Source: an uncultured Gammaproteobacteria bacterium (GTDB lineage Bacteria > Patescibacteriota > Patescibacteriia > Patescibacteriales > GWC2-42-12). Taken from it: a stretch of 64,000 nucleotides of DNA. Shown one piece after another: positions 3,063 to 57,144 of this stretch. The translations under genes were made by a program, and so were the position numbers. The stretch lies in the NCBI GenBank assembly GCA_964537265.1, contig CAZHZE010000003.1:29530-93529 (forward strand), written 5' to 3'. The notes under the pieces were generated by a model. That model saw only the letters and a program-made list of their open reading frames with translations. It ran no database searches and had not been told where the DNA came from. The stretch's first letter is position 1, and every line of letters begins with the position of its first letter.

Positions 3063-3150
3063 TTATCAATTCTCAATTTTCAAACAATTTTCAATTGAAA
3101 ATTTAATAATTGATCATTTATTGATAATTGGTTATTGAAAATTGATAATT
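3061..3150. repeat. family A AT-rich palindromic intergenic element (CAATTNT heptamer arrays)
   Basis: The outer arms are 3061-3077 (aattatcaattctcaat) and 3134-3150 (attgaaaattgataatt), complementary with one mismatch. An 18-nt perfect palindrome (aattttcaattgaaaatt) lies at 3086-3103. A 22-mer (caattctcaattttcaaacaat, 3067-3088) recurs in reverse complement at 22687-22708. Confidence 0.6.
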
Positions 3151-3152
3151 AA

Positions 3153-5147: not shown

Positions 5148-5160
5148 AAAAATTGTAAGT

Positions 5161-5303
5161 TTAAATTCTAAATTCTAATATCTAAACTCTAAACAAATTC
5201 AAAATTATAAATCCAAATGTTTTAAACAAACTGTAATTAGCATTATTTTATAATTTTAATTATTTGAATTTGTTTATGATTTAGGATTTAGATATTAAAA
5301 TTT
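5161..5303. repeat. family B AT-rich palindromic intergenic element (TCTAAAY heptamer arrays)
   Basis: This is a long imperfect hairpin. Positions 5191-5203 (aaacaaattcaaa) pair perfectly with 5263-5275. Positions 5176-5186 (taatatctaaa) pair with 5287-5297. The central region is ~60 nt. The arms are built from 7-nt units (tctaaat/tctaata/tctaaac). Confidence 0.6.
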
Positions 5304-5309
5304 ATTTCA

Positions 5310-6632
5310 TCATTCTTGTCTTAATGCTTCGATCGGGTCTAAACGCGCGGCTTTACGGGCCGGATAAAGCCCGAAACCCAAACCAAAAACAATAGCAAAC
5401 CCCAAAGAAACATAATAGGCTTCTAAAGGAATTATAAAACTCCAATCTAAGCCATAAAAATTAGCTCCTAAATAAATTAAATAAGAAATGCCGATACCAA
5501 TTAAAATTCCAAAAATTGCCCCAATCAAAGTAATAATTAAAGACTCTACTAAAAATTGCAGCATAATATCATTATATTTTGCTCCAACTGCCTTGCGCAA
5601 ACCGATTTCAGCCGTTCTCTCAGTAATAATAACATACATAATATTCATTACGCCAACCCCGCCGACAATTAAAGAAATGGCTACTATGGCTAAAAGCATT
5701 AAAGTAATAGCGCCGGTTATAACGTCTAAAACATCTAGCGATTCTTTCATGGTGACAACCCTAAAATCATCTTCGCTAATATCAGTCATTCCTTCGCCTA
5801 TGTTTTTTATAACCGGTTCGCCCGGCTTTATTTCTAAAGGTTTAGACTCAAGGTTATGGTTAGCGCGAATAACTAGCCTAGCTTCTTCGGCTGTTTCATC
5901 TGCTAAATTAGGGTCTTTAAGCTGATGAAGCATAAACATTATATGATCAATGCCCAAAATTCTTTTTTGCAAAGTTCTTATGGGCACATAAACAAAATTA
6001 TCATAATCTAATGTCATGACAGCGCCCCTTTCTTTTACAACGCCGATAACTAAAAATTTAACTTTTCTAATTTTTATATATTTGCCCAAAGGATCGCTAT
6101 TGCCGAACAATTTATCTTTTATTTTATAACCAAGCACTGCAACAGGAGCCAAAGATTTATCCTCGGCGTCAGTAAAATAACGCCCATAATCAATTTCAGT
6201 CTTATCAATATCCATTATGCTTGCCGTGGTTCCATAAATAAACGTCTTTTTTGATTCTTGGGCATAATTTACCTGCTCTTGACCAATAATAACCGCATAG
6301 CCGTTTTTAACGTTTGGCAATTTATTAACATCTTCCATGTCTTTAAGGGTTAATGTAGTAATCTGCGCGCCTTGAGCCATGGCTACTGCGCTTTGCGTTT
6401 CAGCGGCCGTTCCTTTTTTCCCGGTTGGAGCTTTAACTTCTGTTTCTATTAAATCTGTGCCGCCAAAAGATTCAACTTGCTTATAAACTAAGCCTCTTAT
6501 ACCCTCTCCGGCTGAATATACTATTACAACGCTAGCTATACCTATAATAATTCCTAAAACAGTTAAGGCAGTTCTGGTTTTATTGCCTCTGATAGAGCGT
6601 AAAGAAATTTTTATAACAGGAATTAAACGCAT
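5310..6632 (-). CDS. ABC transporter permease, MacB/FtsX type
   Basis: The protein has an N-terminal TM helix, a large extracytoplasmic domain and three C-terminal TM helices. It carries the ERTAEIGLRKAVGA motif typical of MacB-like FtsX permeases. Confidence 0.85.
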   Translation of the reverse strand: MRLIPVIKISLRSIRGNKTRTALTVLGIIIGIASVVIVYSAGEGIRGLVYKQVESFGGTDLIETEVKAPTGKKGTAAETQSAVAMAQGAQITTLTLKDMEDVNKLPNVKNGYAVIIGQEQVNYAQESKKTFIYGTTASIMDIDKTEIDYGRYFTDAEDKSLAPVAVLGYKIKDKLFGNSDPLGKYIKIRKVKFLVIGVVKERGAVMTLDYDNFVYVPIRTLQKRILGIDHIMFMLHQLKDPNLADETAEEARLVIRANHNLESKPLEIKPGEPVIKNIGEGMTDISEDDFRVVTMKESLDVLDVITGAITLMLLAIVAISLIVGGVGVMNIMYVIITERTAEIGLRKAVGAKYNDIMLQFLVESLIITLIGAIFGILIGIGISYLIYLGANFYGLDWSFIIPLEAYYVSLGFAIVFGLGFGLYPARKAARLDPIEALRQE

Positions 6633-8610: not shown

Positions 8611-8620
8611 AAAACAAAAT

Positions 8621-8752
8621 AAATTCTAAATTCAAAAACTCTAAATTCTAAACAATACTAAAATTCAAATATTCAAAATCCAAAACTATCTAAAATTTTG
8701 AATTTTGGTCATTTAAATTTGTTTAGAATTTAAAATTTAGTATTTAGAATTT
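8621..8752. repeat. family B AT-rich palindromic intergenic element
   Basis: Positions 8642-8655 (taaattctaaacaa) pair perfectly with 8719-8732. Positions 8621-8631 pair with 8742-8752. The heptamer vocabulary matches 5161..5303. Confidence 0.6.
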
Positions 8753-8757
8753 CTAAA

Positions 8758-10527
8758 TTATTTACTTTGCTGTATATAAGTTACTACTAAATCATTTTCA
8801 TTAAGGCCTGACAAAATTTCAGCTAAACCATCATCCCCGCGCAAACCTATTGTTACAGGCACTTCTTTTATTTCTTGGCCGACTAACAATCTAGCAAATT
8901 TACCACTGCCATTCTTTTCAATAACGGCTCTTAACGGCGCAATTAAAACATTATCTTTTTTAGCTGTAGTAATATTAGTATTAGCGGTCATGCCTGATTT
9001 AACATCATTGCCCTGACCATCAAAATCTATTTTTACTTTGTAATATATAACATCTTGGATAACCGTTTCAGCCGGTTCAATAAAATTAACTTGACCCGTG
9101 AATTTAATATCTTCACCGAAAGCATCAAGTGTAATTTCTACCGGATCATTAACCGCCACTTTATTTATATCAGCTTCAGAAATATCAACCTCTATTTCAA
9201 AATTATTTATGCCCAATAAAGAAAAAATTGGATTTGCGACAGAATATTGCTCACCAATCTCATAATTTTTTTTAGTAATTGTGCCATCAACCGGGGCTTT
9301 TATGGAGTTATCATTAATTTGTTTTCTAACTAAATCTAAAGACGCTTGCGATTGGCTAACTTGCGCTTGCGCCAAGCTTATATCCTGCGACCTGGAACCG
9401 GCTTTAAGCTGATTTAATTGAGCTTCAGACACTAACCATGATTTATAATAAGTATCTACTTTAGCTTGAGCCGTAGCGATTTGCTGCTCGCCTGTAACTT
9501 TAGCTGTGGCTAAAGTATTTTGCGCGGTTTTAATGGCGTTATTCAAATTATTTATTGAATCATTTAAATTATTTTGGGCTGTTTGTACTGCGGTAATTCC
9601 GCTACTGACATTTGTTTGCTGTGTGCTAACGGTTGTTTTGTAAGTATCTAATTCGGTTTGAGTAAAATTTGATCCGGCCATACTAGCTTCTAGAAGATCG
9701 TAACAATTCTTTAAAGCAGTAAAAGTTTTATTTAAAGCATCTAAAGTATCTGTAGCTGATTGATTTATATCTCCGCTTTTTTGGCTTATTTTAGATTGCG
9801 ATAACGCGGAAATAGCTTTATCATAACTATCTTTTGTAATTTGCAATAAAGAAATATTCTTTACCCCTAGAAAATTTTTAGCATCATTATCATTTAAAAT
9901 TGTATTTATATTATCTAAAGCGTTGGTGACAAGAGAAATTCTTGTATCTACTGCGGTTATTATTACCGCCTGATAATTTTTTATAGCCTGTTGATAGCTA
10001 GTTATAGACGGCCCAGAAGTTAAATATAGGTCGCTTAAATTTTTTTCTGCTTGCGCTATGCTTTCATTAACCGTATTTTTTATTTTTTCTAATTCGTTAG
10101 AAGAAGAAACGTAAGCTGTTTTAGCTTGATTAGCGCTAGCTTGGCTAACCGCTAATTCGCTAGCAGTAGCTCCGGCTAAAAGCTTAGCTAAATTTGCTTG
10201 AGAAACTCTTAAACTAGCTTCCGCTTCTTTTTCTCTTAATAACAAATCGCTAGAATCAAGTTCGGCTAAAACTTGATCTTTTTTAACCTTGTCGCCAACC
10301 TTGACAAAAATATTAGAAATTTTTCCGGCTGAATTAAAATTTAAATTGATTTCTTTATTAGCTTTTACCGTACCAGTTTCACTGACTGTTTGAATTAAAC
10401 TGCCTCTTTCTACTTTAACGGTTGTATATGTGACATTATTTTTTTTGCCAAAAGCAAAATATGCGCCCAAAAACACTAAAACTAATATCGGAATAACTAT
10501 CAAAATTTTTTTCTTAAAAATTTTCAT
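8758..10527 (-). CDS. HlyD/MacA-type periplasmic adaptor (membrane fusion) protein with an unusually long coiled coil
   Basis: The protein has an N-terminal TM helix and a lipoyl-like half-motif (VKVGDKVKKDQVLAELD). A ~300-aa Ala/Gln/Ser-rich coiled-coil insert follows, then a second lipoyl half and a beta-barrel domain. It lies immediately upstream of the MacB-type ABC genes. Confidence 0.75.
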   Translation of the reverse strand: MKIFKKKILIVIPILVLVFLGAYFAFGKKNNVTYTTVKVERGSLIQTVSETGTVKANKEINLNFNSAGKISNIFVKVGDKVKKDQVLAELDSSDLLLREKEAEASLRVSQANLAKLLAGATASELAVSQASANQAKTAYVSSSNELEKIKNTVNESIAQAEKNLSDLYLTSGPSITSYQQAIKNYQAVIITAVDTRISLVTNALDNINTILNDNDAKNFLGVKNISLLQITKDSYDKAISALSQSKISQKSGDINQSATDTLDALNKTFTALKNCYDLLEASMAGSNFTQTELDTYKTTVSTQQTNVSSGITAVQTAQNNLNDSINNLNNAIKTAQNTLATAKVTGEQQIATAQAKVDTYYKSWLVSEAQLNQLKAGSRSQDISLAQAQVSQSQASLDLVRKQINDNSIKAPVDGTITKKNYEIGEQYSVANPIFSLLGINNFEIEVDISEADINKVAVNDPVEITLDAFGEDIKFTGQVNFIEPAETVIQDVIYYKVKIDFDGQGNDVKSGMTANTNITTAKKDNVLIAPLRAVIEKNGSGKFARLLVGQEIKEVPVTIGLRGDDGLAEILSGLNENDLVVTYIQQSK

Positions 10528-20860: not shown

Positions 20861-20931
20861 TTCCGAGGCTAGGATTCGAACCTAGATTACCAGGGCCAGA
20901 ACCTGGCGTCTTACCATTGGACGACCTCGGA
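20861..20931 (-). tRNA. tRNA-Gln (anticodon CUG)
   Basis: I folded the cloverleaf by hand. The acceptor stem is UCCGAGG/CCUCGGA, with a 3-bp D stem (GUC/GAC) as in bacterial tRNA-Gln. The anticodon stem is CCAGG/CCUGG with loop UUCUGGC. The T arm is CUAGG-UUCGAAU-CCUAG and the discriminator is A. CCA is not encoded. Confidence 0.85.
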
Positions 20932-22549: not shown

Positions 22550-22610
22550 GATTATATATTAACGCATTTAGCTTAAATATCAAGTTTCCCTTAAATTCTA
22601 CAATAAAAAA

Positions 22611-22721
22611 TTTTCAATTGCCAATTATCAATTTCCAATGAATTTTCAATATTAAAATTATCAATTGAAAATTAAAACATTAAATCATTGTTTGAAAATT
22701 GAGAATTGAAAATTGAAAATT
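22611..22721. repeat. family A AT-rich palindromic intergenic element (inverted relative to 3061..3150)
   Basis: It contains the reverse complement of the 22-mer from 3067-3088 at 22687-22708. The terminal segments 22611-22619 (ttttcaatt) and 22711-22719 (aattgaaaa) are complementary. The heptamer vocabulary is the same caattNt type. Confidence 0.55.
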
Positions 22722-22769
22722 AAAAAATAATAAACAAATTAATTATCAGTTATTTAATTAATAGTTAAA

Positions 22770-39218: not shown

Positions 39219-39394
39219 ATTTTTGATTATTATTTTATAGTTTTTAAAATAAAAAAGTCTGCAAAACCGCAGACCATAAACAAAGTGGCTAAAATTAGCT
39301 CTGTCTCGGCAGGTTTTACCCTAATATTAGGCACCTACTGTCTGCGACTATTTAATTTACTTATTTATCTTAACATTTTTATATTTTATGTCAA
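39219..39394 (-). promoter_or_regulatory. rplJ promoter plus structured leader with an attenuator hairpin (putative L10 leader)
   Basis: On the minus strand, TTGACA is at 39394-39389, the spacer is 16 nt, and TAAGAT is at 39372-39367. A ~140-nt leader follows. It contains GC-rich pairings and the hairpin gtctgc-ggtttt-gcagac (39257-39274) followed by UUUUUUAUUUU. Confidence 0.45.
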
Positions 39395-42712: not shown

Positions 42713-42724
42713 AATAAAAATAAT

Positions 42725-42760
42725 AAAAAACAGCTGCTATAAAAGTCAAGCTGTTTTTTT
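42725..42760. terminator. bidirectional terminator-like hairpin
   Basis: The stem joins acagct (42730-42735) to agctgt (42749-42754), extended by A-run/T-run pairing. The loop is 13 nt. It lies between convergent genes. Confidence 0.45.
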
Positions 42761-42775
42761 ATTGGAAAATAAATC

Positions 42776-43408
42776 CTATTTTTCTAATTTCCCCGACCCT
42801 TTAGGGTTATAGCCGTTTTTTACTTCGTCGCCATCTTTATATCCATCGCCGTCAGTATCAGAATTTAATGGGTCGGTTTGATATCTTGATATTTCTTCTG
42901 CGTCGCTCAATCCGTCTCCGTCTGTATCCAACTTCTTATCGGCGACACCTTTTAAACAATTATCTTTATCTGTCTGGTTAGAAATTTTAGCGCAATATTT
43001 TTCGTCGCCGGTTTTAATGGCTAAACTAAAAGAAGTTTGAGCTAAACAATTTTCAAATGCCGCGCCATCGGCTAACTCGTTACATTTATCTAAATCGTTA
43101 TTATTCGCTGCCTCCTTTATAAAATAAGATTGAAAACAATTTATTTTATCTTCTTCATTTTGTAGCTGCTCGCAAACTTTGTTATTGTCTTCATTCAATA
43201 TATCTTGCGTTAAAGATAGAATCTTATCAGTGTTTTTTTCGGGATTATCCGCTTGATTATTATTTTTTTCTTCAATTGCTCCTTTATAATCTTTAATAAC
43301 ATAAACACCAGCAATAAAAACAGATATAAACAAACAAACAGCTATAATAATTACAACTTTCTTATTCATATAATTAAGGACAATTAATTGTTTCGTATAT
43401 AATAACAA
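42776..43408 (-). CDS. small membrane-anchored Cys-repeat protein with C-terminal thrombospondin-type-3 (TSP3) Ca-binding repeats (cassette A partner)
   Basis: The C-terminus reads DTDGDGLSDAEEISRYQTDPLNSDTDGDGYKDGDEVKNGYNPKG. It has one TM helix and repeated C-x(9-12)-C helical units. The likely true start is the ATG at 43369 (MNKKVVIII), 4 nt after the upstream stop. Confidence 0.65.
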   Translation of the reverse strand: MLLYTKQLIVLNYMNKKVVIIIAVCLFISVFIAGVYVIKDYKGAIEEKNNNQADNPEKNTDKILSLTQDILNEDNNKVCEQLQNEEDKINCFQSYFIKEAANNNDLDKCNELADGAAFENCLAQTSFSLAIKTGDEKYCAKISNQTDKDNCLKGVADKKLDTDGDGLSDAEEISRYQTDPLNSDTDGDGYKDGDEVKNGYNPKGSGKLEK

Positions 43409-46400
43409 CTAAACCGGGATTACCGTTTGCGCCATTAGTCGGATCACTTCCGCCTAATCCGCCCTGGCCAGCATTGGCGCTATAATAAGAATCACCGTTA
43501 TTTCCTGCATATCTTCCCGAACCTTTTATTATTGATAAGCCGGAACTATTTCCTCCTCCTCCGCCTGCTCCTCCGGCATCTCTATCATTATTATAAGCTC
43601 CCCCGCTGCCGCCGTTGTAACCGCCACCTCCACCACCACCACCGGCTCCATCACCAGGGTTGGAAGATCCATTACTTCCAGAAATACTTCCGCTCGCGCC
43701 GGCTATACCTGGCCCCACGCCGCTTCCATTTACTCCGCCTCCTCCGCCAACTCCAGCGGGTGTACGACCAGCAGTACCATCTACATGTAAACTTCCACCG
43801 CCACCTCCTCCGCCGCCGCCGGCTAAAACTAATGGCAGAGAACCATTGTAAACGCTTGAAAACCCTCCTCCGCCACCTCCACCGCCTGAATGACCATGAT
43901 GACCAGCATCACCGCCACTACCGCCACCATTTAACCCCCCTGCACCGCCACTGCCAACATAATAATCATGAGAATTAATCCCACCGGCTCCACCACCACC
44001 AACTTTTATTGTAAGACTTGAACCAGAAGATATATTAAATTGTCCAGAAGCATAAGCTCCACCGCCGCCAGCTCCGCCATTGCCACCGCTATCATAACCA
44101 CCGCCACCACCGCCACCACCCCAAGCTTTTATTTCAAGGCTAACAACATTGCTCGGCACAGTAAAAGTATATGTGCCAGCGGTAGCATATTTACTATCTT
44201 GTTTTGCTGTTGCACAAGCATTGCAAGATGATCCGTTCCAGCTATAATTAGTCGCACATATAAATTTACAAATTCCAGCTGCAACGCTATAAGAACTGAC
44301 ATTGCTCGGTAGCCAGGCTGAACCGTTCCAATTTTGTAAAACCGTGCTAGTTGTGTTCCAATAGGAATAAGATGGTTTGGGCGTACAATTAACGGTTTGT
44401 GTAGTTAATAAACAAATTGAACCGTCCCAAGTATAATTGGTAGGGCATTTAAAAGTACAAGGATTGTTAGCTAAACTATAAGAGCTTATATTGCTGGGTA
44501 GCCAAGCCGATCCGTTCCAAGTTTGAAAAACCGTGCTGCCAACATTCCAAATAGCATTAGACGGTAAAGCTGTGCAGCTAACAGTTTTAGTTGGCCAATT
44601 GCAATCGTTTTTACAATGTTCAATTTGGCCATTAGCGGCTCCGTCATCGCACTGTTCAGGACCATTTTTTATAGTGTCTCCGCAATAACCACCCGCATCA
44701 GACCTGCAGGTAACAGAATTACACCCATACTGTTTAATCGATGAACTGCTAGCCGGATCAGGAGATACATAAGTATTAGGTTCGCAATTTTCTCCTGCTT
44801 CAATAACATCGTTTCCGCAAACCGGCGGAGTTATGCCGGAACAAACAGAATCGCAATAATTTGGCAAGCCGTTATTTGAGGCTGAATCGCAAACTTCTCC
44901 GTATTGGGTTTGCGGATTATCCGCGATGTCTCCGCAATAACCGCCAATAAATTTGCATTCAGAAGTGCAATCATATTGTTTAGTAATGGAGCTTTCAGCC
45001 GGATTTTTAGCTATTCCATCTTTTTTATCGCAATCTTCACCGGCTTCTTTAATATTATTTCCACAATAAGAAACAGTAATACCATTACAATTTTCATTGC
45101 AATGGTTGGCAGTGCCGTTTGAAGAACCGTCGTCATAATGGTGATTGCCGTATATATCAACGCCGCAATCTTCTCCAATTTCTTTTACCCCGTTGCCGCA
45201 TATGCCAGGCAAGATGGCTGTACAAGAACTGTTGCAATGGCCGGGTTGTCCGTTTCTGGTGCCGTCATCGCAAAATTCTCCATTGTCAATTATACTGTTG
45301 CCGCAAATATATTTTATAGAAACCGGGCAAACAATACTTGTTTTTGCCCCGCGGCTGTCGCTAACTTCTAAAGTAACGCTGTAATCACCGACATTGCCGG
45401 CTTGTTTAGAATAAATTTCTTTTTGATCATTAACTTTTGAGTCTTTTAATTTTAATAGTTGAGGCCATCCGGAAGTGTTTTGGCTAATAATTTTCCAGTC
45501 AGAGATTAAATCGGTGGCATCAGAGTCGTAAGCTTTAATATAACCGCTGAAGACTTTACCCGGCGAACCGGTTAAATTTCCGCAAATAATCACCGGCGGA
45601 TTGTTATCTGAATTGCTGCCGATTTTAACGCTGTTGCTGCCATAGCAAGCTCCTTGTTCTAAGGTTGTTATATAGCCTGATTCCATGACCGCGCAAATAT
45701 CATAATCGCTGCCGTTAGACTTAGAAGTATATACATAGGCGTTGCTGCTGTTGGGCAATTCAAAATTACTATCATTAGGGTTGGGATCGGCAAATTTTTT
45801 GCTATTTTCATCCCAACAAGTAGTAGCGTTGTAATTTGTTGCCCCGCATGGCCCGAGTTTATTTATGATATCAACCGGCAGAGCAAAGCCCAAATCTTTG
45901 GCTAAAGTAGACTGCCAGCTTGGCCAAGTAGAAACAGTCTTGCCGGATAGATAGGAACCGGAAGAAAGCTTAGGGTAAGAGCCTTGTTGATTTTTATAGT
46001 TTTCTATAGCTATTTTCATGTCCGCTAAATCGGCTAGACGCTTGGTGTCGCGGACAATGGCTTGTTTTAAATCCTCGCCGGAAACGTTGCTATTAAACTT
46101 CCAGTGGGCTAAAATCTGTCCGAAAATATCCAGTGTTTTAGTATCGGCGTTTTGGTTATATGAAATAATGAAAATATTGGTGTAAAAATTGTTGCCGGAA
46201 ATATTGGCGGCGTTGATATATACCGTTCTGCCGTCGCGCACCGCTTCGTAGCCGTCAACCTGCAAACTTTGGGGCGAACCTTGGTTTTTTACATTAGCCT
46301 GATACCAGCGCAAAGGGCTTAGATGATTGGGGTTAGGAACTACCCTGGTGGCGATGGCGTCGGGGGAAATTTCAGCTAAGCTAAAATTATTAGACAAAAA

Positions 46401-46461: not shown

Positions 46462-47250
46462 TTATTTATTGATTAACCCGCCCAACCCTTTAGGGTCATA
46501 GCCGTTTTTTACTTCATCGCCATCTTTATATCCATCACCGTCAGTATCGGGATTTAGGGGGTCGGTTTGATATCTTGATATTTCTTCATAATCGTTTAAG
46601 CCGTCATTATCCGTGTCCGGAGATTTGCCTGATAAAAAATTTATGCAATAAATTTTAAATTGTGCATCATTTATTTTTTCACATTCCTGACTTTCATTTT
46701 TATTTCGCGCTATTTGATAATTAGCTACATTTTGGCACATACTTTTTACCGCATCGCTAGTAAAACCTGAACAATCTTCTGGGCTTTTATAAACTCTAAA
46801 AATATTTACAAAACATTCAATTTTATAATCAAGAATATTCATAATTGAACATTTTTCTATCTCTTCTAAAGCTACTTTAAGTAAAATCGGATTAGCGCAT
46901 TTCATCTGCGTTTCTGCGTCTTCAAAAACTTCATCACCGCAAATAAAATATTTATCAGTTAAAAAAGCCATGGAAGAAACGCAATTATCCTCATCATCTC
47001 TGCCTTCGCATAATTCAATATCATTTTTTGACGCCGCCTCTTTATAAAATTCTAATTGGGCTTTGTTGAATTCTGGATGATTTTTTTTTAATTCTTGAAA
47101 ATTATCAGCTATAATTTTATCAGCCGCAATTTCTATTTTTTCATTATCAACTTTTTGATTATTTTTATAAATAAATAAAAATAATGGTAGAGAAATTAGT
47201 AATAATATTAAAACTGCTATTATAATAATTATTATTTTTTTATTAAGCAT
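46462..47250 (-). CDS. small membrane-anchored Cys-repeat protein with C-terminal TSP3 repeats (cassette B partner)
   Basis: This is a paralog of 42776..43408. The C-terminus reads DTDNDGLNDYEEISRYQTDPLNPDTDGDGYKDGDEVKNGYDPKG. The last ~110 nt are ~85-90% identical to 42797-42905. Confidence 0.65.
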   Translation of the reverse strand: MLNKKIIIIIIAVLILLLISLPLFLFIYKNNQKVDNEKIEIAADKIIADNFQELKKNHPEFNKAQLEFYKEAASKNDIELCEGRDDEDNCVSSMAFLTDKYFICGDEVFEDAETQMKCANPILLKVALEEIEKCSIMNILDYKIECFVNIFRVYKSPEDCSGFTSDAVKSMCQNVANYQIARNKNESQECEKINDAQFKIYCINFLSGKSPDTDNDGLNDYEEISRYQTDPLNPDTDGDGYKDGDEVKNGYDPKGLGGLINK

Positions 47251-47254
47251 ATTA

Positions 47255-49687
47255 TTATTTCCAACACCTATAAGTAGCCATAGTATGGTCTGTCATAATA
47301 ATCCAATTTTTAGGATTAGAATTACTTCTGACTAACTTGCAACTTAAATTGCCGGTGGTGCAAGTACCTATAACTGAACCAGCGGAATTTCTTTGATTAA
47401 ACGGAGCTAAATAAGAAATATCCGAATATCCGGATGGCGTTGCGTAACTTGGGGTAACGGGTTGTGATCCTTTCGGCCTGCCACAACACTGGCAAGCATC
47501 ACCATCGCAAGTTAATAATTCGCAACAAGCATAATCATTCATCGCCGGGCTAGTAGTATTGCAAGCCTCGGAAGTTGCGCCCGTTGATACCGGCGGTAGG
47601 GCGCCACATGTATCCCATGATAAATAATCTGCTCCGCAAGCACTTACTCCGGCCACTGATACAATGCCACAATAAGAAGGCAGGCCTACGGCGACTGAAG
47701 TGCAAGGTTTAGAATTCCCGTCGCATACTTCAGAGCCATTTACTATGCCGTCACCGGCATATCCTCCTGCCAGTTGTCCATCAGCCCCGCAACTATATTG
47801 CTTAGTTACGGAACTATCGGTTGGTTTTACCGGAGATATATAACTTGATTTATCGCAAACTTCTCCACCGTTGATTACGCCGTCTCCAGACCAACCACCC
47901 GCATCAGATCTACAAGCATTAGAGCATTTATACTGTTTAATCGATGAACTGCTAGCCGGGTCAGGAGATACATAAGTATTAGGTTCGCAATTTTCTCCTG
48001 CTTCAATAACATCGTTTCCGCAAACCGGCGGAGTTATGCCGGAACAAACAGAATCGCAATAATTTGGCAAGCCGTTATTTGAGGCTGAATCGCAAACTTC
48101 TCCGTATTGGGTTTGCGGATTATCCGCGATGTCTCCGCAATAACCGCCAATAAATTTGCATTCAGAAGTGCAATCATATTGTTTAGTAATGGAGCTTTCA
48201 GCCGGATTTTTAGCTATTCCATCTTTTTTATCGCAATCTTCACCGGCTTCTTTAATATTATTTCCACAATAAGAAACAGTAATACCATTACAATTTTCAT
48301 TGCAATGGTTGGCAGTGCCGTTTGAAGAACCGTCGTCATAATGGTGATTGCCGTATATATCAACGCCGCAATCTTCTCCAATTTCTTTTACCCCGTTGCC
48401 GCATATGCCAGGCAAGATGGCTGTACAAGAACTGTTGCAATGGCCGGGTTGTCCGTTTCTGGTGCCGTCATCGCAAAATTCTCCATTGTCAATTATACTG
48501 TTGCCGCAAATATATTTTATAGAAACCGGGCAAACAATACTTGTTTTTGCCCCGCGGCTGTCGCTAACTTCTAAAGTAACGCTGTAATCACCGACATTGC
48601 CGGCTTGTTTAGAATAAATTTCTTTTTGATCATTAACTTTTGAGTCTTTTAATTTTAATAGTTGAGGCCATCCGGAAGTGTTTTGGCTAATAATTTTCCA
48701 GTCAGAGATTAAATCGGTGGCATCAGAGTCGTAAGCTTTAATATAACCGCTGAAGACTTTACCCGGCGAACCGGTTAAATTTCCGCAAATAATCACCGGC
48801 GGATTGTTATCTGAATTGCTGCCGATTTTAACGCTGTTGCTGCCATAGCAAGCTCCTTGTTCTAAGGTTGTTATATAGCCTGATTCCATGACCGCGCAAA
48901 TATCATAATCGCTGCCGTTAGACTTAGAAGTATATACATAGGCGTTGCTGCTGTTGGGCAATTCAAAATTACTATCATTAGGGTTGGGATCGGCAAATTT
49001 TTTGCTATTTTCATCCCAACAAGTAGTAGCGTTGTAATTTGTTGCCCCGCATGGCCCGAGTTTATTTATGATATCAACCGGCAGAGCAAAGCCCAAATCT
49101 TTGGCTAAAGTAGACTGCCAGCTTGGCCAAGTAGAAACAGTCTTGCCGGATAGATAGGAACCGGAAGAAAGCTTAGGGTAAGAGCCTTGTTGATTTTTAT
49201 AGTTTTCTATAGCTATTTTCATGTCCGCTAAATCGGCTAGACGCTTGGTGTCGCGGACAATGGCTTGTTTTAAATCCTCGCCGGAAACGTTGCTATTAAA
49301 CTTCCAGTGGGCTAAAATCTGTCCGAAAATATCCAGTGTTTTAGTATCGGCGTTTTGGTTATATGAAATAATGAAAATATTGGTGTAAAAATTGTTGCCG
49401 GAAATATTGGCGGCGTTGATATATACCGTTCTGCCGTCGCGCACCGCTTCGTAGCCGTCAACCTGCAAACTTTGGGGCGAACCTTGGTTTTTTACATTAG
49501 CCTGATACCAGCGCAAAGGGCTTAGATGATTGGGGTTAGGAACTACTCTGGTGGCGATGGCGTCGGGGGAAATTTCATTATCAGCTAAAATTAATTTAGG
49601 CAATAAAAAAATCACCAAAAAAAACAATAAAAAAACAACCGATAATTTGGCGATTATTGATAATTTCTTGATAAATAAATTTTGCAT
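47255..49687 (-). CDS. large secreted multidomain protein, cassette B (810 aa)
   Basis: Residues ~39-586 are identical to residues ~31-578 of 43374..46460. The signal peptide differs. The C-terminal ~225 aa form a different, extremely Cys-dense domain ending in YRCWK. Confidence 0.75.
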   Translation of the reverse strand: MQNLFIKKLSIIAKLSVVFLLFFLVIFLLPKLILADNEISPDAIATRVVPNPNHLSPLRWYQANVKNQGSPQSLQVDGYEAVRDGRTVYINAANISGNNFYTNIFIISYNQNADTKTLDIFGQILAHWKFNSNVSGEDLKQAIVRDTKRLADLADMKIAIENYKNQQGSYPKLSSGSYLSGKTVSTWPSWQSTLAKDLGFALPVDIINKLGPCGATNYNATTCWDENSKKFADPNPNDSNFELPNSSNAYVYTSKSNGSDYDICAVMESGYITTLEQGACYGSNSVKIGSNSDNNPPVIICGNLTGSPGKVFSGYIKAYDSDATDLISDWKIISQNTSGWPQLLKLKDSKVNDQKEIYSKQAGNVGDYSVTLEVSDSRGAKTSIVCPVSIKYICGNSIIDNGEFCDDGTRNGQPGHCNSSCTAILPGICGNGVKEIGEDCGVDIYGNHHYDDGSSNGTANHCNENCNGITVSYCGNNIKEAGEDCDKKDGIAKNPAESSITKQYDCTSECKFIGGYCGDIADNPQTQYGEVCDSASNNGLPNYCDSVCSGITPPVCGNDVIEAGENCEPNTYVSPDPASSSSIKQYKCSNACRSDAGGWSGDGVINGGEVCDKSSYISPVKPTDSSVTKQYSCGADGQLAGGYAGDGIVNGSEVCDGNSKPCTSVAVGLPSYCGIVSVAGVSACGADYLSWDTCGALPPVSTGATSEACNTTSPAMNDYACCELLTCDGDACQCCGRPKGSQPVTPSYATPSGYSDISYLAPFNQRNSAGSVIGTCTTGNLSCKLVRSNSNPKNWIIMTDHTMATYRCWK
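47931..49577. repeat. copy B of the 1,647-bp near-identical direct repeat
   Basis: See 44728..46374. Confidence 0.9.
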
Positions 49688-49764: not shown

Positions 49765-50616
49765 TTATTTCTGGCATTTTTCACACCAATGGGTTCCGCG
49801 CCCGCCTAATTTCATTTTTTTTATAACCTGGCGGCATTTTTTGCATCTCTCGCCTGCTCGGCCGTAAACTTTTAAATATTTTATAAAATTACCTGTTTCG
49901 CCTTGCGCGTCGACATAATCGTTAAAAGACGTGCCGCGGTTCTTAATCGCATGTTTTAAAATTTTAGGTATGACTTGATAAAGTTTTTTTATTTCCTCTG
50001 GCTTTAAAGTTTTAATTTTTCTAAATGGCTTAATGCCGGCGGCGAATAAAGATTCATCGGCATAAATATTGCCAATGCCGGAAATATATTTTTGATCCAT
50101 TAAAAATTGTTTAATAGTTATATTTTTCCTGGCTAAAGATTTTTTAAAATAATCTAAAGAAAAATCTCTGCTTAAAGGTTCGACGCCAAATTTTTTTTCT
50201 AAATTAGAGAAATCTTTTAAGTCTAGAAGCTTAAGCCAACCGAATTTTCTTACATCATTAAAATATAGAAAACTTTTATCATTAAATTTAAAAATTACTC
50301 TAGTAAATTTATTAGGTAATTTTTGCCCGCTATTTATAATCGGATGCCCGCCGGCGATTATTCTAGATTTAGATTGATAAACTAGCTGGCCGGTCATTTT
50401 TAAATGAATAATCAAAAATTTTTTTTCTAAATTAAAAACGAGCATCTTCGCTCGTCTTTTTACCAACTTTATTTTTGCGCCTAAAATATTTTTTAATTCT
50501 TTTTCTTTTATTTGAAAAAATTTTTTATCCAGTATTTCAACACCGATAATTTTTTTATTTTTTAATTTTTTATCTAAATCGCGGACGATTGTTTCTACTT
50601 CCGGCAGTTCTGGCAT
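49765..50616 (-). CDS. mutM: formamidopyrimidine-DNA glycosylase
   Basis: The N-terminal catalytic segment (MPELPEVE), the H2TH region and the C-terminal zinc finger (CKKCRQ...HWCEKCQ) are present. Confidence 0.92.
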   Translation of the reverse strand: MPELPEVETIVRDLDKKLKNKKIIGVEILDKKFFQIKEKELKNILGAKIKLVKRRAKMLVFNLEKKFLIIHLKMTGQLVYQSKSRIIAGGHPIINSGQKLPNKFTRVIFKFNDKSFLYFNDVRKFGWLKLLDLKDFSNLEKKFGVEPLSRDFSLDYFKKSLARKNITIKQFLMDQKYISGIGNIYADESLFAAGIKPFRKIKTLKPEEIKKLYQVIPKILKHAIKNRGTSFNDYVDAQGETGNFIKYLKVYGRAGERCKKCRQVIKKMKLGGRGTHWCEKCQK

Positions 50617-50692
50617 AAAATTTTTAAATTCTAAATCCTAAATTCGAAATTCTAAATAAATTAAAAATTTAAAATTTTTAGATTAAAATATA
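50617..50692. repeat. family B heptamer array forming the left arm around the four-helix-bundle gene
   Basis: The sequence ttctaaat/cctaaat/tcgaaat/tctaaat shows 7-nt periodicity. Positions 50630-50645 are complementary to 51072-51087 at 15 of 16 positions. Confidence 0.55.
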
Positions 50693-51058
50693 TTATTTAC
50701 ACTTTTCTAATATAGCGCCAAATATTTTCATTAATTCGGTTGATTCAGTAATTAATTTTTCCCTTTCGTTGTCTAATTCTAAAATATTATTTATATAAAC
50801 TAATTTTAACCAATAACATGTTTCCTTAGCTTCTTTGCGGCAAATTTTTACTCTCATAACGAAATCTTTTTTGCTTAATGATTCGTTAGCTTCAATATAA
50901 TTGGCTCCGATTGAACCGGAAGATCTAATAACCTGTTTACCATCTTCTATATTAGAAATTGTTCTTGGCAATTTTTTAATAAACGATCTAACTCTCTTTG
51001 CTAATTCTAACGTTCTATTTTCTAAATTATATTGTTTTGAGCTTTGAATCTCTGACAT
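50693..51058 (-). CDS. four-helix-bundle protein (23S rRNA intervening-sequence protein family)
   Basis: This 121-aa protein has segments typical of this family (RSSGSIGANYIEANESLSKKDF...KICRKEAKETCYWLKL). Confidence 0.8.
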   Translation of the reverse strand: MSEIQSSKQYNLENRTLELAKRVRSFIKKLPRTISNIEDGKQVIRSSGSIGANYIEANESLSKKDFVMRVKICRKEAKETCYWLKLVYINNILELDNEREKLITESTELMKIFGAILEKCK

Positions 51059-51096
51059 TTGGATTTGTCTAGAATTTAGTATTTAGATATTAGAGT
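51059..51096. repeat. family B heptamer array forming the right arm around the four-helix-bundle gene
   Basis: The reverse complement reads actctaatatctaaatactaaattctagacaaatcc. This matches the left-arm vocabulary of 5161..5303 and pairs with 50630-50645. Confidence 0.55.
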
Positions 51097-51669
51097 TTAT
51101 TTTATTATTATTTCTCCAAAATGATTATCCATATCAATGCCAGCGGCGTTGGCTTCATCAGTATCAATATGCATAGCTAATTTAAAAGATGGATCAACTC
51201 TAACTAAAACATTTTCAAATAATAAATCGCGCGGCCCAATCGTATCAACTTTAACTTTATCGCCATTTTTTAAGCCAATATTAGCTGCTGTTTTCGGGTC
51301 CATATGAATATGCCTTAAAGCTAAAATAACGCCTTCTTTTAAATCAACCTCGCCTTTTGGACCAATAATTTTAACTCCCGGCGTATCTTCTAGATTCCCA
51401 GAATCTCTCACCGGCGGATTAAGACCTAAAACGCGAGCTTCGGTTTCCGAAATTTCTACTTGTGTTTTAGAACGAACCGGACCTAAAATTCTAACTTTAT
51501 CTATTTCTCCTCGCGAACCGACTAATTTAACTATTTCGTTAGCCGCAAATTGGCCTGTTTGCGATAAATCATGAAATTTTGTTAATTCAAAACCTGGCCC
51601 GAATAATATTTCTAAATCAGGTTTTGATAAATGCACATGACGAGCTGAAATTTCAATTGGTACTTGCAT
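51097..51669 (-). CDS. pduL: phosphate propanoyl/acetyl-transferase PduL
   Basis: The two PduL half-domains carry the His motifs ISARHVHLS and ALRHIHMD. Length is 190 aa. Confidence 0.85.
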   Translation of the reverse strand: MQVPIEISARHVHLSKPDLEILFGPGFELTKFHDLSQTGQFAANEIVKLVGSRGEIDKVRILGPVRSKTQVEISETEARVLGLNPPVRDSGNLEDTPGVKIIGPKGEVDLKEGVILALRHIHMDPKTAANIGLKNGDKVKVDTIGPRDLLFENVLVRVDPSFKLAMHIDTDEANAAGIDMDNHFGEIIIK

Positions 51670-53549: not shown

Positions 53550-53581
53550 AAAATAGTTATAAAGTTAAAAGTTTTTAAGGG

Positions 53582-54370
53582 TTATTTTATCCCCCATTTT
53601 TTTAAATATTTAAACCAAGAAATTATATGATGCCAGGCGGCCAAACTTGTAAAAAATTTATACCAAACTTTGCGCGCGCTTTGGCGATTATGGTTATGAA
53701 TAATGGAAACTTCCGGATTATAAATTACTTTCCAGCCGTCGCGCCAAAATCTTTTGCATAAATCTGTGTCTTCAAAATATAAAAAGAATTTTTCGTCATA
53801 CATGCCGATTTGCCTTAAGGCCGAAGCGCGGCAGAATAAAAAAGAACCCAAGAGCCAATTTACTTCGCGCGCTCTATCTTTATTATAGTCTTTATATAAA
53901 AATCTGTCTAAATCTTTTTCGCCTAAACTAAACTTGCCTAAGGGCGTGCGTCTAAAAAATGGCGTGACTAAACTCGGCCAGCGAAAACAAGAATTTTGCA
54001 CACTATTATCCAGATTAAATTGCTTAGGGCCGACAACTCCGACTTCTAAATTTTTTTCCATGTAAAAAAATAGTCTAGCAAATACATCAACGCTAGCTAA
54101 AGTGTCCGGATTCATAATAACAATATATTTGCCCTGAGCAACTTTTATGCCCTGATTATTAGCCGCACCCAGACCAATATTTTTGCCATTCATGATAAAT
54201 TTTATTTCTCCAAAAGGCTTTAAATCTTCGCTTTTTAAATCACCTGAATAATTATCAACTACAATAATTTCATAATCTAAACCCGGCCAATCAGCCTGTC
54301 TAATTGACTCTATGCATTTTAAAGTTAAATTTTTAGCTTTGTAATTTACTATTACTATACTAATATCCAT
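53582..54370 (-). CDS. glycosyltransferase family 2
   Basis: The segments ISIVIVNYK, VVDNYS and FEDTDLC indicate a GT-A fold with the DxD region. Confidence 0.85.
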   Translation of the reverse strand: MDISIVIVNYKAKNLTLKCIESIRQADWPGLDYEIIVVDNYSGDLKSEDLKPFGEIKFIMNGKNIGLGAANNQGIKVAQGKYIVIMNPDTLASVDVFARLFFYMEKNLEVGVVGPKQFNLDNSVQNSCFRWPSLVTPFFRRTPLGKFSLGEKDLDRFLYKDYNKDRAREVNWLLGSFLFCRASALRQIGMYDEKFFLYFEDTDLCKRFWRDGWKVIYNPEVSIIHNHNRQSARKVWYKFFTSLAAWHHIISWFKYLKKWGIK

Positions 54371-54380
54371 AAAAAGTTAT

Positions 54381-54432
54381 AAAGTTAAAAGTTATAAAGT
54401 TGAAAGTATTTAACTTTATAACTTTTAACTTT
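54381..54432. repeat. family C AT-rich perfect hairpin (AAGTTAWA heptamer arrays)
   Basis: A perfect 21-bp stem joins aaagttaaaagttataaagtt (54381-54401) to aactttataacttttaacttt (54412-54432) with a 10-nt loop. The 19-mer agttataaagttaaaagtt (54374-54392) is repeated directly at 53555-53573. Confidence 0.7.
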
Positions 54433-54440
54433 TGACTAAA

Positions 54441-55653: not shown

Positions 55654-57144
55654 TTATTTTAAATCCTGATACTGAGCTAAAACATCTTCAGAAACTTCTA
55701 TAATATTAGTCATGCTTAAATTTCCGTAGTTCCAGCTATCACCAGAAGTTATAAATTTCTTTTGTCCTTCGACAATATAATAAATTTTTTGCGTAGCTAA
55801 ACTTCGTAATAAAGATCCGTTAGGATAAGTTTTAACGCCTAAAACTTGTCCATAATCAGGATATTGGCATAAAACTTCTTCATTAACATCTATTCTTTTT
55901 ATCGTTCTATATTGCCAAAGTTCGGCTAAATTTCTAATTATTTTTTTCTGACCGTTGATAATATAATAAATCTTGTTAGTTAAAATACTTCTTAAAAGCG
56001 ATCCATCAGCATAAGTTTTAGAGCCTAAAACTTGTCCATAATCAGGATATTGGCATAAAACTTCTTCATTAACATCTATTCTTTTTATCGTTCTATATTG
56101 CCAAAGTTCGGCTAAATTTCTAATTATTTTTTTCTGACCGTTGATAATATAATAAATCTTGTTAGTTAAAATACTTCTTAAAAGCGATCCATCAGCATAA
56201 GTTTTAGAGCCTAAAACTTGTTCTTCAGTAGAAGTGGCAGTTTCCGGAGTGGTTGTCGCATCATCAGATAATTCAGGAGTTATCTCCGGCGTGCTTGTAG
56301 CGATTACGTCTTCGCAAGTTTTAGATTTTTCTGCCAATTGTTCGGCGGTTAGATCGCATAAATCAGGTGATTTACTTACAACATCGCGAGATTGAAATCC
56401 GTTAACGCACTCTCCCCAATCTCCATAAATAACTTCAGAACATGTATTAAAATTCGTGCTAAAATCTCCTGAGTTATTTACACTAGGCGCAGGAGCGACA
56501 TAATTAACCGTAACATTAAAATTTCCTTCTGATGTTCTTCCTTCGGCATCGGTTGCTGAACAATTAACTTGAGTTGTGCCGACAATAAAAGTTGACCCGG
56601 AAACCGGCTCGCAAGTTATGGCCGGATTTTTAGGATTAGCGTCAACCGCCACCGCAGAATAATTTACCGCTATGCCATCAGGATTATCAGTATCAACATT
56701 CATATTCTCGGGTAAAATAAGAACCGGGGCCTTATTATCTATCGTAATCGTAATATAAGTGAAAGAATTATTGCCAAACTCATCAAAAGCTTTGGCAAAA
56801 ATATAATAAGTTCCGTCATTTATAGAAGTAGTATCAAAACTTACTGAATAAGGTGAAGTTGCAACCTCGCCTATTTTTCCTAAAGGCAAAGGTATGACGG
56901 ATTGCCAAAATTCAACTCGCTTGATTGAAGAATCTGAATCGGTCGCGCTGGCGGTAAGAGTAATAGTGCCTTTGACAATATCGCCATCTATGGGCGAAAC
57001 AATAGAAATAGAAGGAGGGGTTAAATCGCCAAAAATAGATAACGCTGAAGCATTATTTGCCAGCACAAAAAAACCGCCCATAAGAATAGCGGCGCACATA
57101 AAAATCGCTTTTTTAAAAGTTATTTTTAATATTTTATTTTTCAT
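55654..57144 (-). CDS. secreted Ig-like-domain protein with three C-terminal ~62-aa modules
   Basis: A signal peptide is followed by two Ig-like/HYR-like domains (VKGTITLTASATDSDSSIKRVEF; NCSATDAEGRTSEGNFNVTV) and a Cys-containing linker. Then come three repeats of the YADGSLLRS...KIYYIINGQKKII type, two of them identical. Confidence 0.65.
   Translation of the reverse strand: MKNKILKITFKKAIFMCAAILMGGFFVLANNASALSIFGDLTPPSISIVSPIDGDIVKGTITLTASATDSDSSIKRVEFWQSVIPLPLGKIGEVATSPYSVSFDTTSINDGTYYIFAKAFDEFGNNSFTYITITIDNKAPVLILPENMNVDTDNPDGIAVNYSAVAVDANPKNPAITCEPVSGSTFIVGTTQVNCSATDAEGRTSEGNFNVTVNYVAPAPSVNNSGDFSTNFNTCSEVIYGDWGECVNGFQSRDVVSKSPDLCDLTAEQLAEKSKTCEDVIATSTPEITPELSDDATTTPETATSTEEQVLGSKTYADGSLLRSILTNKIYYIINGQKKIIRNLAELWQYRTIKRIDVNEEVLCQYPDYGQVLGSKTYADGSLLRSILTNKIYYIINGQKKIIRNLAELWQYRTIKRIDVNEEVLCQYPDYGQVLGVKTYPNGSLLRSLATQKIYYIVEGQKKFITSGDSWNYGNLSMTNIIEVSEDVLAQYQDLK
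55837..56221. repeat. perfect 186-bp tandem duplication (2.07 copies) inside the CDS
   Basis: By direct comparison 55837-56022 equals 56023-56208, and identity continues to 56221. The 186-nt period equals 62 codons, so the duplication is in frame. Confidence 0.9.

Follow-up and report, generated by a model that had tools for sequence, protein, structure and literature searches.

A probable intervening-sequence-type cassette: a four-helix-bundle gene between heptamer-built inverted arms in a protein-gene spacer of a Patescibacteriota genome

Introduction

How does a gene of a protein family named after intervening sequences (IVS) in 23S ribosomal RNA (rRNA) come to lie between inverted repeats in the spacer of two protein-coding genes? 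The question is raised by a stretch of 64,000 nucleotides, hereafter the window, from an uncultured bacterium deposited as Gammaproteobacteria and placed by GTDB in the Patescibacteriota (GenBank assembly GCA_964537265.1, contig CAZHZE010000003.1, positions 29,530 to 93,529). The window has a GC content of 28-42%, and its minus strand holds nearly all genes. A sequence-only reading had noticed that a small open reading frame (ORF) of this family fills the space between mutM and pduL, that its flanks are complementary to each other, and that they share their vocabulary with gene-free hairpins elsewhere in the window, here called family B; it had proposed that the ORF travels with, or targets, a stem-loop element. 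The ORF found in some 23S rRNA IVS has had no known function since its description in 1993 (PMC4990558), and IVS elements have hitherto been treated as an oddity of rRNA.

The analysis presented here leads us to conclude, with a probability that we put at roughly three in four, that 50625-51099 is an IVS-type selfish cassette: arms of ~40 nt, built from heptamers, enclose a single gene, whose product is a basic four-helix-bundle protein of S23p/Avd-like type. The evidence comes from the inverted repeat itself, from relatives of the gene in other neighbourhoods, from sites at which gene and arms are both missing, from the gene-free hairpins and from a survey across phyla.

Results

The arrangement described in the sequence-only reading was borne out: the 366-bp gene is separated from mutM by 76 nt and from pduL by 38 nt, and 50630-50645 is complementary to 51072-51087 at 15/16 positions, as can be read directly from the sequence. 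The inverted repeat extends to arms of 42 nt (50625-50666 and 51058-51099) that are 76% complementary, with a 21-nt core at 86%. But is this more than any AT-rich spacer would offer? When 120 nt from each side of a gene were aligned locally and compared with 30 shuffles, the four-helix-bundle gene came first among the 56 testable window genes (score 39, z 6.6); z exceeded 3 in 4/56 genes and exceeded 5 in this gene only (1/56). The complementarity thus stands above chance for AT-rich sequence. TCTAAAT occurs 52 times in the window, against 30.6 +/- 5.1 expected. In both the minimum free energy and the centroid fold of the whole cassette the arms pair and enclose the ORF, and the gene-free elements fold into long hairpins. 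A profile built from arms in other genomes recognizes both arms with nhmmer, the 5' arm at 51100-51034 (E 2.4e-10) and the 3' arm at 50625-50664 on the plus strand (E 1.3e-4). The 5' arm consists of the units ACTCTAA TATCTAA ATACTAA ATTCTAG ACAAATCCAA, and its bases 1-3 (51097-51099) are the pduL stop codon, TAA (Table 1).

Do the arms belong to the place or to the gene? Homologues with 79-85% identity lie in unrelated gene neighbourhoods and have matching arms: one is found between pilin-like genes (L007), one near GIY-YIG, NYN and toxin genes (L011) and one after a ROK kinase gene (L012). In all three, heptamer repeats ending in AAACAAATTCAA directly precede the ATG, and the stop codon is followed by a spacer and then by the inverted arm. 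The spacer reads TATTTGTTTTGRATTTARAAAATTTG in relatives and is degenerate in the window copy. In a four-way alignment of the window with three relatives from other gene contexts, similarity runs from TAAAYTCTAA to TTAGARTTTA, and the sequences are unrelated beyond these tips. Because the similarity is bounded by the arm tips, we place the limits of the element at 50625 and 51099, and arm, ORF, spacer and arm together form a single 475-bp unit. Conservation is stronger in the arms than at synonymous sites: the window 5' arm is 84-87% identical to those of L007, L012 and L023, compared with 54-66% at third codon positions, and the 5' arms of close relatives share 84-92% identity, compared with 54-72% at such positions. 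Taken together with a ratio of nonsynonymous to synonymous substitution rates (dN/dS) of 0.06-0.11 for the ORF against its relatives, this indicates that arms and protein are both constrained. In L011 (at about 2945-2985; same contig as L024), a GC-rich mini-hairpin of ~32 nt (GCTACGCGAGATCTGGCGTAGC) interrupts the 5' arm as a nested insertion.

The complementary view comes from sites without the gene. A metagenome scan with the pduL protein yielded two related contigs in which pduL and mutM are separated by 24 nt (L015; pduL 85% and mutM 73% identical to the window) and by 18 nt (L016; 83% and 81%). Neither spacer contains a four-helix-bundle gene or family B arms, and the bases directly ahead of the mutM ATG are common to these empty sites and the window; the residual host spacer at 50617-50624 is identical to the bases ahead of the mutM ATG in L016. 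Since L015 and L016 lack both gene and arms, the comparison shows gain or loss of the arm-ORF-arm unit as a whole, in a single event, at pduL-mutM, and gain in the lineage of the window is a simpler reading than loss. Across all pduL-relative loci (L015-L022), no arm-profile match was obtained (E<=1e-3), some of these contigs ending at or near the pduL stop codon. Of the two proposals made for the ORF, that it travels with the stem-loop is strongly supported by the shared arms in unrelated neighbourhoods, the absence of both gene and arms at empty sites and the survey described below. That it targets an existing stem-loop is not favoured: no family B hairpin is present where the gene is missing from pduL-mutM, and traces of the ORF start survive in the gene-free copies.

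These gene-free copies are informative in their own right. Searched with the arm profile built on other genomes, the 64 kb yield exactly six arms, which make up three elements: the cassette and two ORF-less copies. The vocabulary shared between cassette and hairpins is seen as direct-repeat families as well, 51057-51112 resembling 5262-5317 (82% identity) and 8711-8766, and 50623-50675 resembling 5160-5212 (83% identity). The copy at 8611-8757 folds into a hairpin of -44.4 kcal/mol (z -7.3), and its arms match the profile at E 3.7e-8 and 0.012. Both gene-free hairpins align to the two ends of the gene-bearing unit, which supports the proposal that the gene is enclosed by the arms of such an element. 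The copy at 8611-8757 also retains ATG ACC AAA ATT CAA AAT, encoding the family N-terminus MTKIQN, and the post-ORF spacer. The second copy (fold z -4.3; direct-repeat families D7 and D14) is more decayed. Because ORF-start remnants are kept and family B hairpins are missing from the empty sites, the gene-free hairpins are internal-deletion derivatives of gene-bearing copies, much as miniature inverted-repeat transposable elements (MITEs) derive from full-length transposons. In the protein, residues 1-8 are conserved despite their predicted disorder, which suggests that their codons are conserved as part of a nucleic-acid element.

Similar derivatives are found elsewhere. In a member of the Planctomycetota (L058, 2055-2571), an intact copy is immediately followed by 3.9 tandem units of 132 nt with 96% matches. 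Each unit is ORF-less and combines the arm end and the 3' arm with the ATG and about 15 codons. Further ORF-less hairpins are present in L028, L078 and L095. Arrays like that of L058 could be mistaken for repeats of the CRISPR (clustered regularly interspaced short palindromic repeats) kind.

Two other hairpin families occur in the window. Family A consists of intergenic hairpins of TTNTCAA heptamers at 3063-3152 and 22550-22769 that end in AAACAATTTTCAA. By eye, this end resembles the inner arm end of family B, AAACAAATTCAA, and the (AATTCAA)n arms of a Nostoc element described below; the family A hairpins may be remnants of a sister element that have lost the ORF. At E<=10 they gave no match to the arm profile. 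The hairpin at 3063-3152 has the palindrome TTTTCAATTGAAAA at its centre, and this palindrome also occurs in the 24-nt spacer of the empty site L015 (1511-1534). Family C has the vocabulary GTTATAAA/GTTAAAA and is represented by a half element at 53550-53581 and a full hairpin at 54371-54440, which bracket a family-2 glycosyltransferase gene (53582-54370); this gene came second in the flank test (z 4.2).

What does the cassette encode? The 121-aa protein is basic (isoelectric point 9.3) and matches PF05635 with 54.8 bits (cut-off 33.8) and TIGR02436 with 75.2 bits (cut-off 24). We searched the 64-kb window for a paralogue and found none. The dN/dS values given above show that the protein is under purifying selection. 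In an AlphaFold model of the monomer (predicted local distance difference test score 91.8), four helices are predicted at 13-28, 34-59, 63-86 and 93-120. Among known structures, the model fits PDB 2RLD best (template modelling score 0.74-0.83), followed by 2GSC, with Avd (4DWL, 8UB7) lower; 2RLD is also a sequence match (E 1.7e-13), and its deposition holds five chains. The closest matches in sequence and fold are thus BT_0352 (2RLD) and Xcc0516 (2GSC), pentameric structures of the 'S23 ribosomal protein family'. Both entries concern the protein alone, and no flanking element is described for either in the searchable literature.

To see how far this design extends, we scanned genomes for relatives of the gene. 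The scan gave at least 600 candidate stretches, of which at least 593 encode a relative; the best-scoring 80 loci, 58-82% identical, were kept, and 67 of these have full flanks and form the basis of the inverted-repeat counts. They stem from about a dozen phyla and belong to the groups Patescibacteria, Planctomycetota, Desulfobacterota, Gammaproteobacteria, Bacteroidota, Verrucomicrobiota, Dehalococcoidales, Omnitrophota, Cloacimonadota, Acidobacteria and others. Flanking inverted repeats reached z>3 in 60/67 loci and z>5 in 51/67, with a median z of 7.5. Compared with the 4/56 window genes above z 3, four-helix-bundle genes are clearly associated with such arms.

The arms are recognizably the same throughout. 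They are made up of CTAAATY or CGAAATY heptamers, of which CGAAGCA and CKAATAT are variants; the element termini read 5'-AAATYCKAA...TTMGRATTT-3', and the conserved junction AAACAAATTCAA-ATG recurs throughout the survey. By element type, 26 loci are T-type, 34 G-type and 2 mixed. Both arms are of the same unit type in 52/53 loci (Fisher p 3e-14), a figure to which shared descent contributes. Unit use among 66 loci is modestly skewed, AGCAC towards 5' arms and AATATC towards 3' arms (25/13 and 21/28). The arms are AT-rich even in hosts whose flanks have 60-70% GC. A perfect 30-nt inverted repeat, (AATTCAA)x4, flanks a Nostoc plasmid gene that is 40% identical, and the design therefore reaches beyond the surveyed subfamily. 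A general pairing of the first ~12 codons with the post-stop spacer was considered and discarded, as z exceeded 3 in only 7/69 loci (median z 1.1); such pairing is a trait of certain copies only.

Equally consistent is the place that the element occupies. The cassette almost always lies co-oriented within a short spacer between two genes on the same strand: the upstream neighbour is co-oriented in 63/67 loci and the downstream one in 59/64, the gaps have medians of 62 and 80 nt, approximately one arm length, and the ribosome-binding site of the downstream host gene is often found just beyond the 3' tip. A consensus scan of the window cassette for an internal promoter gives only 9-of-12 matches, in very AT-rich sequence. 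Because of these co-oriented short spacers and because no strong promoter match is found inside, the element is one of operon spacers and most likely relies on transcription by the host.

More distant members have some conspicuous neighbours. A four-helix-bundle gene lies between cas2 and cas1 in Anabaena cylindrica pANACY.01 (L104) and another between csx2 and cas1 in Pseudanabaena galeata pPg_04 (L105), and the figure legend of a published survey of CRISPR association names '23S rRNA IVP' among its domains. The cas-gene neighbours and this listing may reflect selfish insertion rather than function. In a Moranbacteria locus (L116), two four-helix-bundle genes (691-1071 and 2501-2869), 1.4 kb apart on opposite strands, flank a TSP3-repeat gene.

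Table 1. Features of the cassette, its host genes and its ORF-less copies (window positions)
Feature	Position	Strand	Remarks
Whole cassette	50625..51099	-	475 bp; 5' arm, ORF, spacer, 3' arm; termini on the minus strand 5'-TAAACTCTAA...TTAGAATTTA-3'
5' arm	51059..51099	-	41 nt; reaches the ATG; inverted repeat I1
Four-helix-bundle ORF	50693..51058	-	121 aa, 366 bp; PF05635 23S_rRNA_IVP, TIGR02436
Post-ORF spacer	50667..50692	-	26 nt, stop codon to 3' arm; from alignments with relatives
3' arm	50625..50666	-	42 nt; inverted copy of the 5' arm (...TTTATTTAGAATTTCGAATTTAGGATTTAGAATTTA); repeats I1, I4
Residual host spacer	50617..50624	-	AAAATTTT (minus strand), between element and mutM ATG
ORF-less copy	8611..8757	-	both arms and short loop; aligns to both ends of gene-bearing cassettes
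ORF-less copy, more decayed	5148..5309	.	orientation ambiguous; read on the minus strand, ATA replaces the ATG
pduL/PTAC (phosphate propanoyltransferase), upstream host gene	51097..51669	-	PF06130, E 4.4e-77
mutM (formamidopyrimidine-DNA glycosylase), downstream host gene	49765..50616	-	PF01149, PF06831, PF06827

Discussion

How might such a cassette operate? We propose that, having no strong promoter of its own, it would be transcribed within the host operon. In the operon transcript, the arms would pair into a long stem, bringing the pduL stop and the mutM start codons together again and burying the region just ahead of the ATG of the ORF. By analogy with the rRNA-borne relatives, RNase III might then cut the stem, which would free a translatable mRNA of the ORF and leave the host genes usable. 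The protein, presumably a pentamer like its relatives, would probably bind the imperfect hairpin built from the repeats of its own element, in the form of RNA or of single-stranded DNA. This last step is a reasonable guess because the homologue Avd does something comparable: five protomers of the Avd pentamer grip an 11-bp imperfect RNA stem-loop with flipped-out bases (bioRxiv 10.1101/2023.10.23.563531).

The obvious points of comparison are the ORF-bearing 23S rRNA IVS of Coxiella burnetii, Leptospira and others, whose proteins belong to the same family (PF05635/S23p). The Coxiella IVS, regarded as selfish, is 428 nt long (428-444), has a 28-bp terminal stem that RNase III cuts, and carries in its loop an S23p ORF, now decaying, with the heptamer GACAGAT three times before the ATG (PMC4990558). 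The cassette, at 475 bp, falls into the same size class; its ORF is enclosed by a stem of terminal inverted repeats; and tandem heptamers, CTAAATY/CGAAATY in place of GACAGAT, stand directly upstream of its ATG. Neither has an evident Shine-Dalgarno sequence, transcription occurs within a host transcript (as it probably does for the cassette), and both can be regarded as selfish. The parallel to ORF-bearing IVS drawn in the sequence-only reading is thus apt (PMC4990558). The differences are no less clear: the cassette lies in the protein-gene spacer pduL-mutM and not in a 23S rRNA helix, its ORF is intact and under purifying selection, its arms are conserved across phyla, and it has left ORF-less derivatives. 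Because it has the architecture of these elements and lacks their defining location in rRNA, we would say that the cassette works like an rRNA IVS without being one.

Two further systems share parts of the design. Avd, from the diversity-generating retroelement (DGR) of the Bordetella phage BPP-1, has a homologous basic four-helix-bundle fold, and its stem-loop is encoded near its own gene; however, identity is only 12-14%, and the cassette has neither a reverse transcriptase nor template and variable repeats. MITEs and their parent transposons resemble the cassette in their terminal inverted repeats, in the coexistence of full-length and short deleted forms in one genome and in their intergenic insertion, and the window, with three elements in 64 kb of which two are ORF-less, shows just this pattern of copies. 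In contrast to MITE parents, the sole ORF of the cassette encodes a 121-aa protein and no known transposase, no target-site duplication is visible, and the arms are built of heptamers.

Several observations weigh against a selfish cassette that acts through an RNA stem, or at any rate lend it no support. The fold energy of the whole cassette is no better than that of shuffles (z -0.97), and the arm pairing of the window copy is the weakest among its close relatives (76% and -34 kcal/mol, compared with -53 and -56). Pairing that extends into the first codons, seen in 7/69 loci, is missing from the window copy. Arm mismatches are not enriched for sense-strand G:U pairs (46 vs 62, p 0.15), and selection on an RNA stem is not demonstrated; given this missing bias, the arms could act as double-stranded DNA repeats. 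With regard to mobility, none of 28 well-defined junctions shows a visible target-site duplication, though one of 1-2 nt could be hidden by the AAAT/ATTT termini, and the cassette and its vicinity contain no recombinase, transposase or reverse transcriptase. A search of plasmids and phages for close relatives found none. Finally, the identical proteins P0069 and P0013 each occur in one context across many samples, and because they keep these single contexts, movement of the element is rare.

Could the arms then be the terminal inverted repeats of a non-autonomous DNA transposon that is mobilised in trans by an unlinked transposase, with the gene as a passenger? Inverted termini, discrete ends, MITE-like ORF-less copies and the lack of an enzyme of its own would all be accounted for, and the missing G:U signature fits arms that act at the DNA level. 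A passenger, however, would not be expected to be under strong purifying selection and to accompany the arms, at 58-82% amino acid identity, through about a dozen phyla, nor to start at the repeat and, in some copies, inside it. A single trans-acting enzyme common to all hosts would also be required, and the target-site duplication is not seen. We consider this explanation unlikely. We give no better odds to the view that the arms are simply 5' and 3' regulatory sequences of the gene, for example a translational or stability hairpin, that spread by ordinary horizontal transfer and recombination, the gene-free hairpins being decayed genes. The stability of copies within species, the lack of both a duplication and an enzyme, and the arm that covers the translation start region would suit it. 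It is at odds with insertions that are exact to the arm tips in operon spacers of 18-24 nt, with three copies in 64 kb of which two are gene-free, with the tandem array of ORF-less units in L058 and with arms that stay AT-rich in hosts of 60-70% GC.

That a host hairpin pre-existed and the gene homed into its loop is distinctly improbable: gene-free hairpins of the same family do occur in the same genome, but empty pduL-mutM sites have no family B hairpin, gene-free copies retain the ATG, the first codons and the post-ORF spacer, and arms and ORF are found together in 60/67 loci. More improbable still is a role as the Avd accessory protein of a DGR. The Pfam family is shared with Avd-like proteins (PMC10053308) and the fold resembles 4DWL and 8UB7, but the neighbours are PTAC, mutM, PfkB and NTP_transferase genes, with no reverse transcriptase, and no template/variable pair was found: the sole candidate, a 138-nt repeat of 85% identity (42792-42929 and 46481-46618), has mixed substitutions and reflects TSP3-repeat paralogy. 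We have therefore rejected it. Chance complementarity in AT-rich, repetitive spacers, with which the insignificant whole-cassette fold would agree, is practically negligible given the first rank of the gene in the flank test and arms conserved in other genomes and phyla.

The reading as an IVS-type selfish cassette opens a wider view. There is probably a much wider family, with rRNA as one of its landing sites. Arms, heptamers and the ATG junction are conserved across many phyla at the nucleotide level, and ORF-less hairpins are left behind. A bolder proposal, which we regard as possible but rather doubtful, is that the cassettes and the ORF-bearing rRNA IVS make up one class of mobile elements across phyla, whose sole product, an Avd-like pentamer, recognizes the element's own heptamer hairpin and is needed for it to spread or persist. 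If true, this would be a mobile element without a transposase, recombinase or reverse transcriptase of known kind, accompanied by MITE-like ORF-less satellites. In published full text, we found only rRNA-borne elements and Avd, and no heptamer-armed cassettes in protein-gene spacers or ORF-less derivatives of them; the 1993 account of Leptospira (Ralph & McClelland) falls outside this coverage, and an older mention is possible. With the cis elements (number and type of heptamers, arm tips) and the protein now defined, binding, RNase III cleavage and mobility can be addressed directly. The cassette also accounts for one kind of AT-rich hairpin in the intergenic regions of reduced genomes.

Other features of the window

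Some observations concern other parts of the window. An Rfam scan found no rRNA gene and no family matching the hairpins; its matches are a ribosomal protein L10 leader (39241-39365, 48.2 bits) and a tRNA (20861-20931), both on the minus strand. The 661 nt at 42713-43373 contain no long ORF, and 42792-42929 within them shares 85% identity with the TSP3-repeat gene at 46462-47250, at the 3' end of that gene; the region may be a pseudogene or a missed gene. Two pairs of repeats, 44727-45026 with 47930-48229 (300 nt) and 45559-45602 with 48762-48805 (44 nt), are 100% identical and both spaced 3203 nt apart. They are shared by two adjacent genes whose products are very large (1028 aa and 810 aa), and their common spacing suggests a recent duplication or gene conversion. 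Lastly, the gene at 55654-57144 contains tandem 186-nt repeats (55751-56221) with 74-86% identity.

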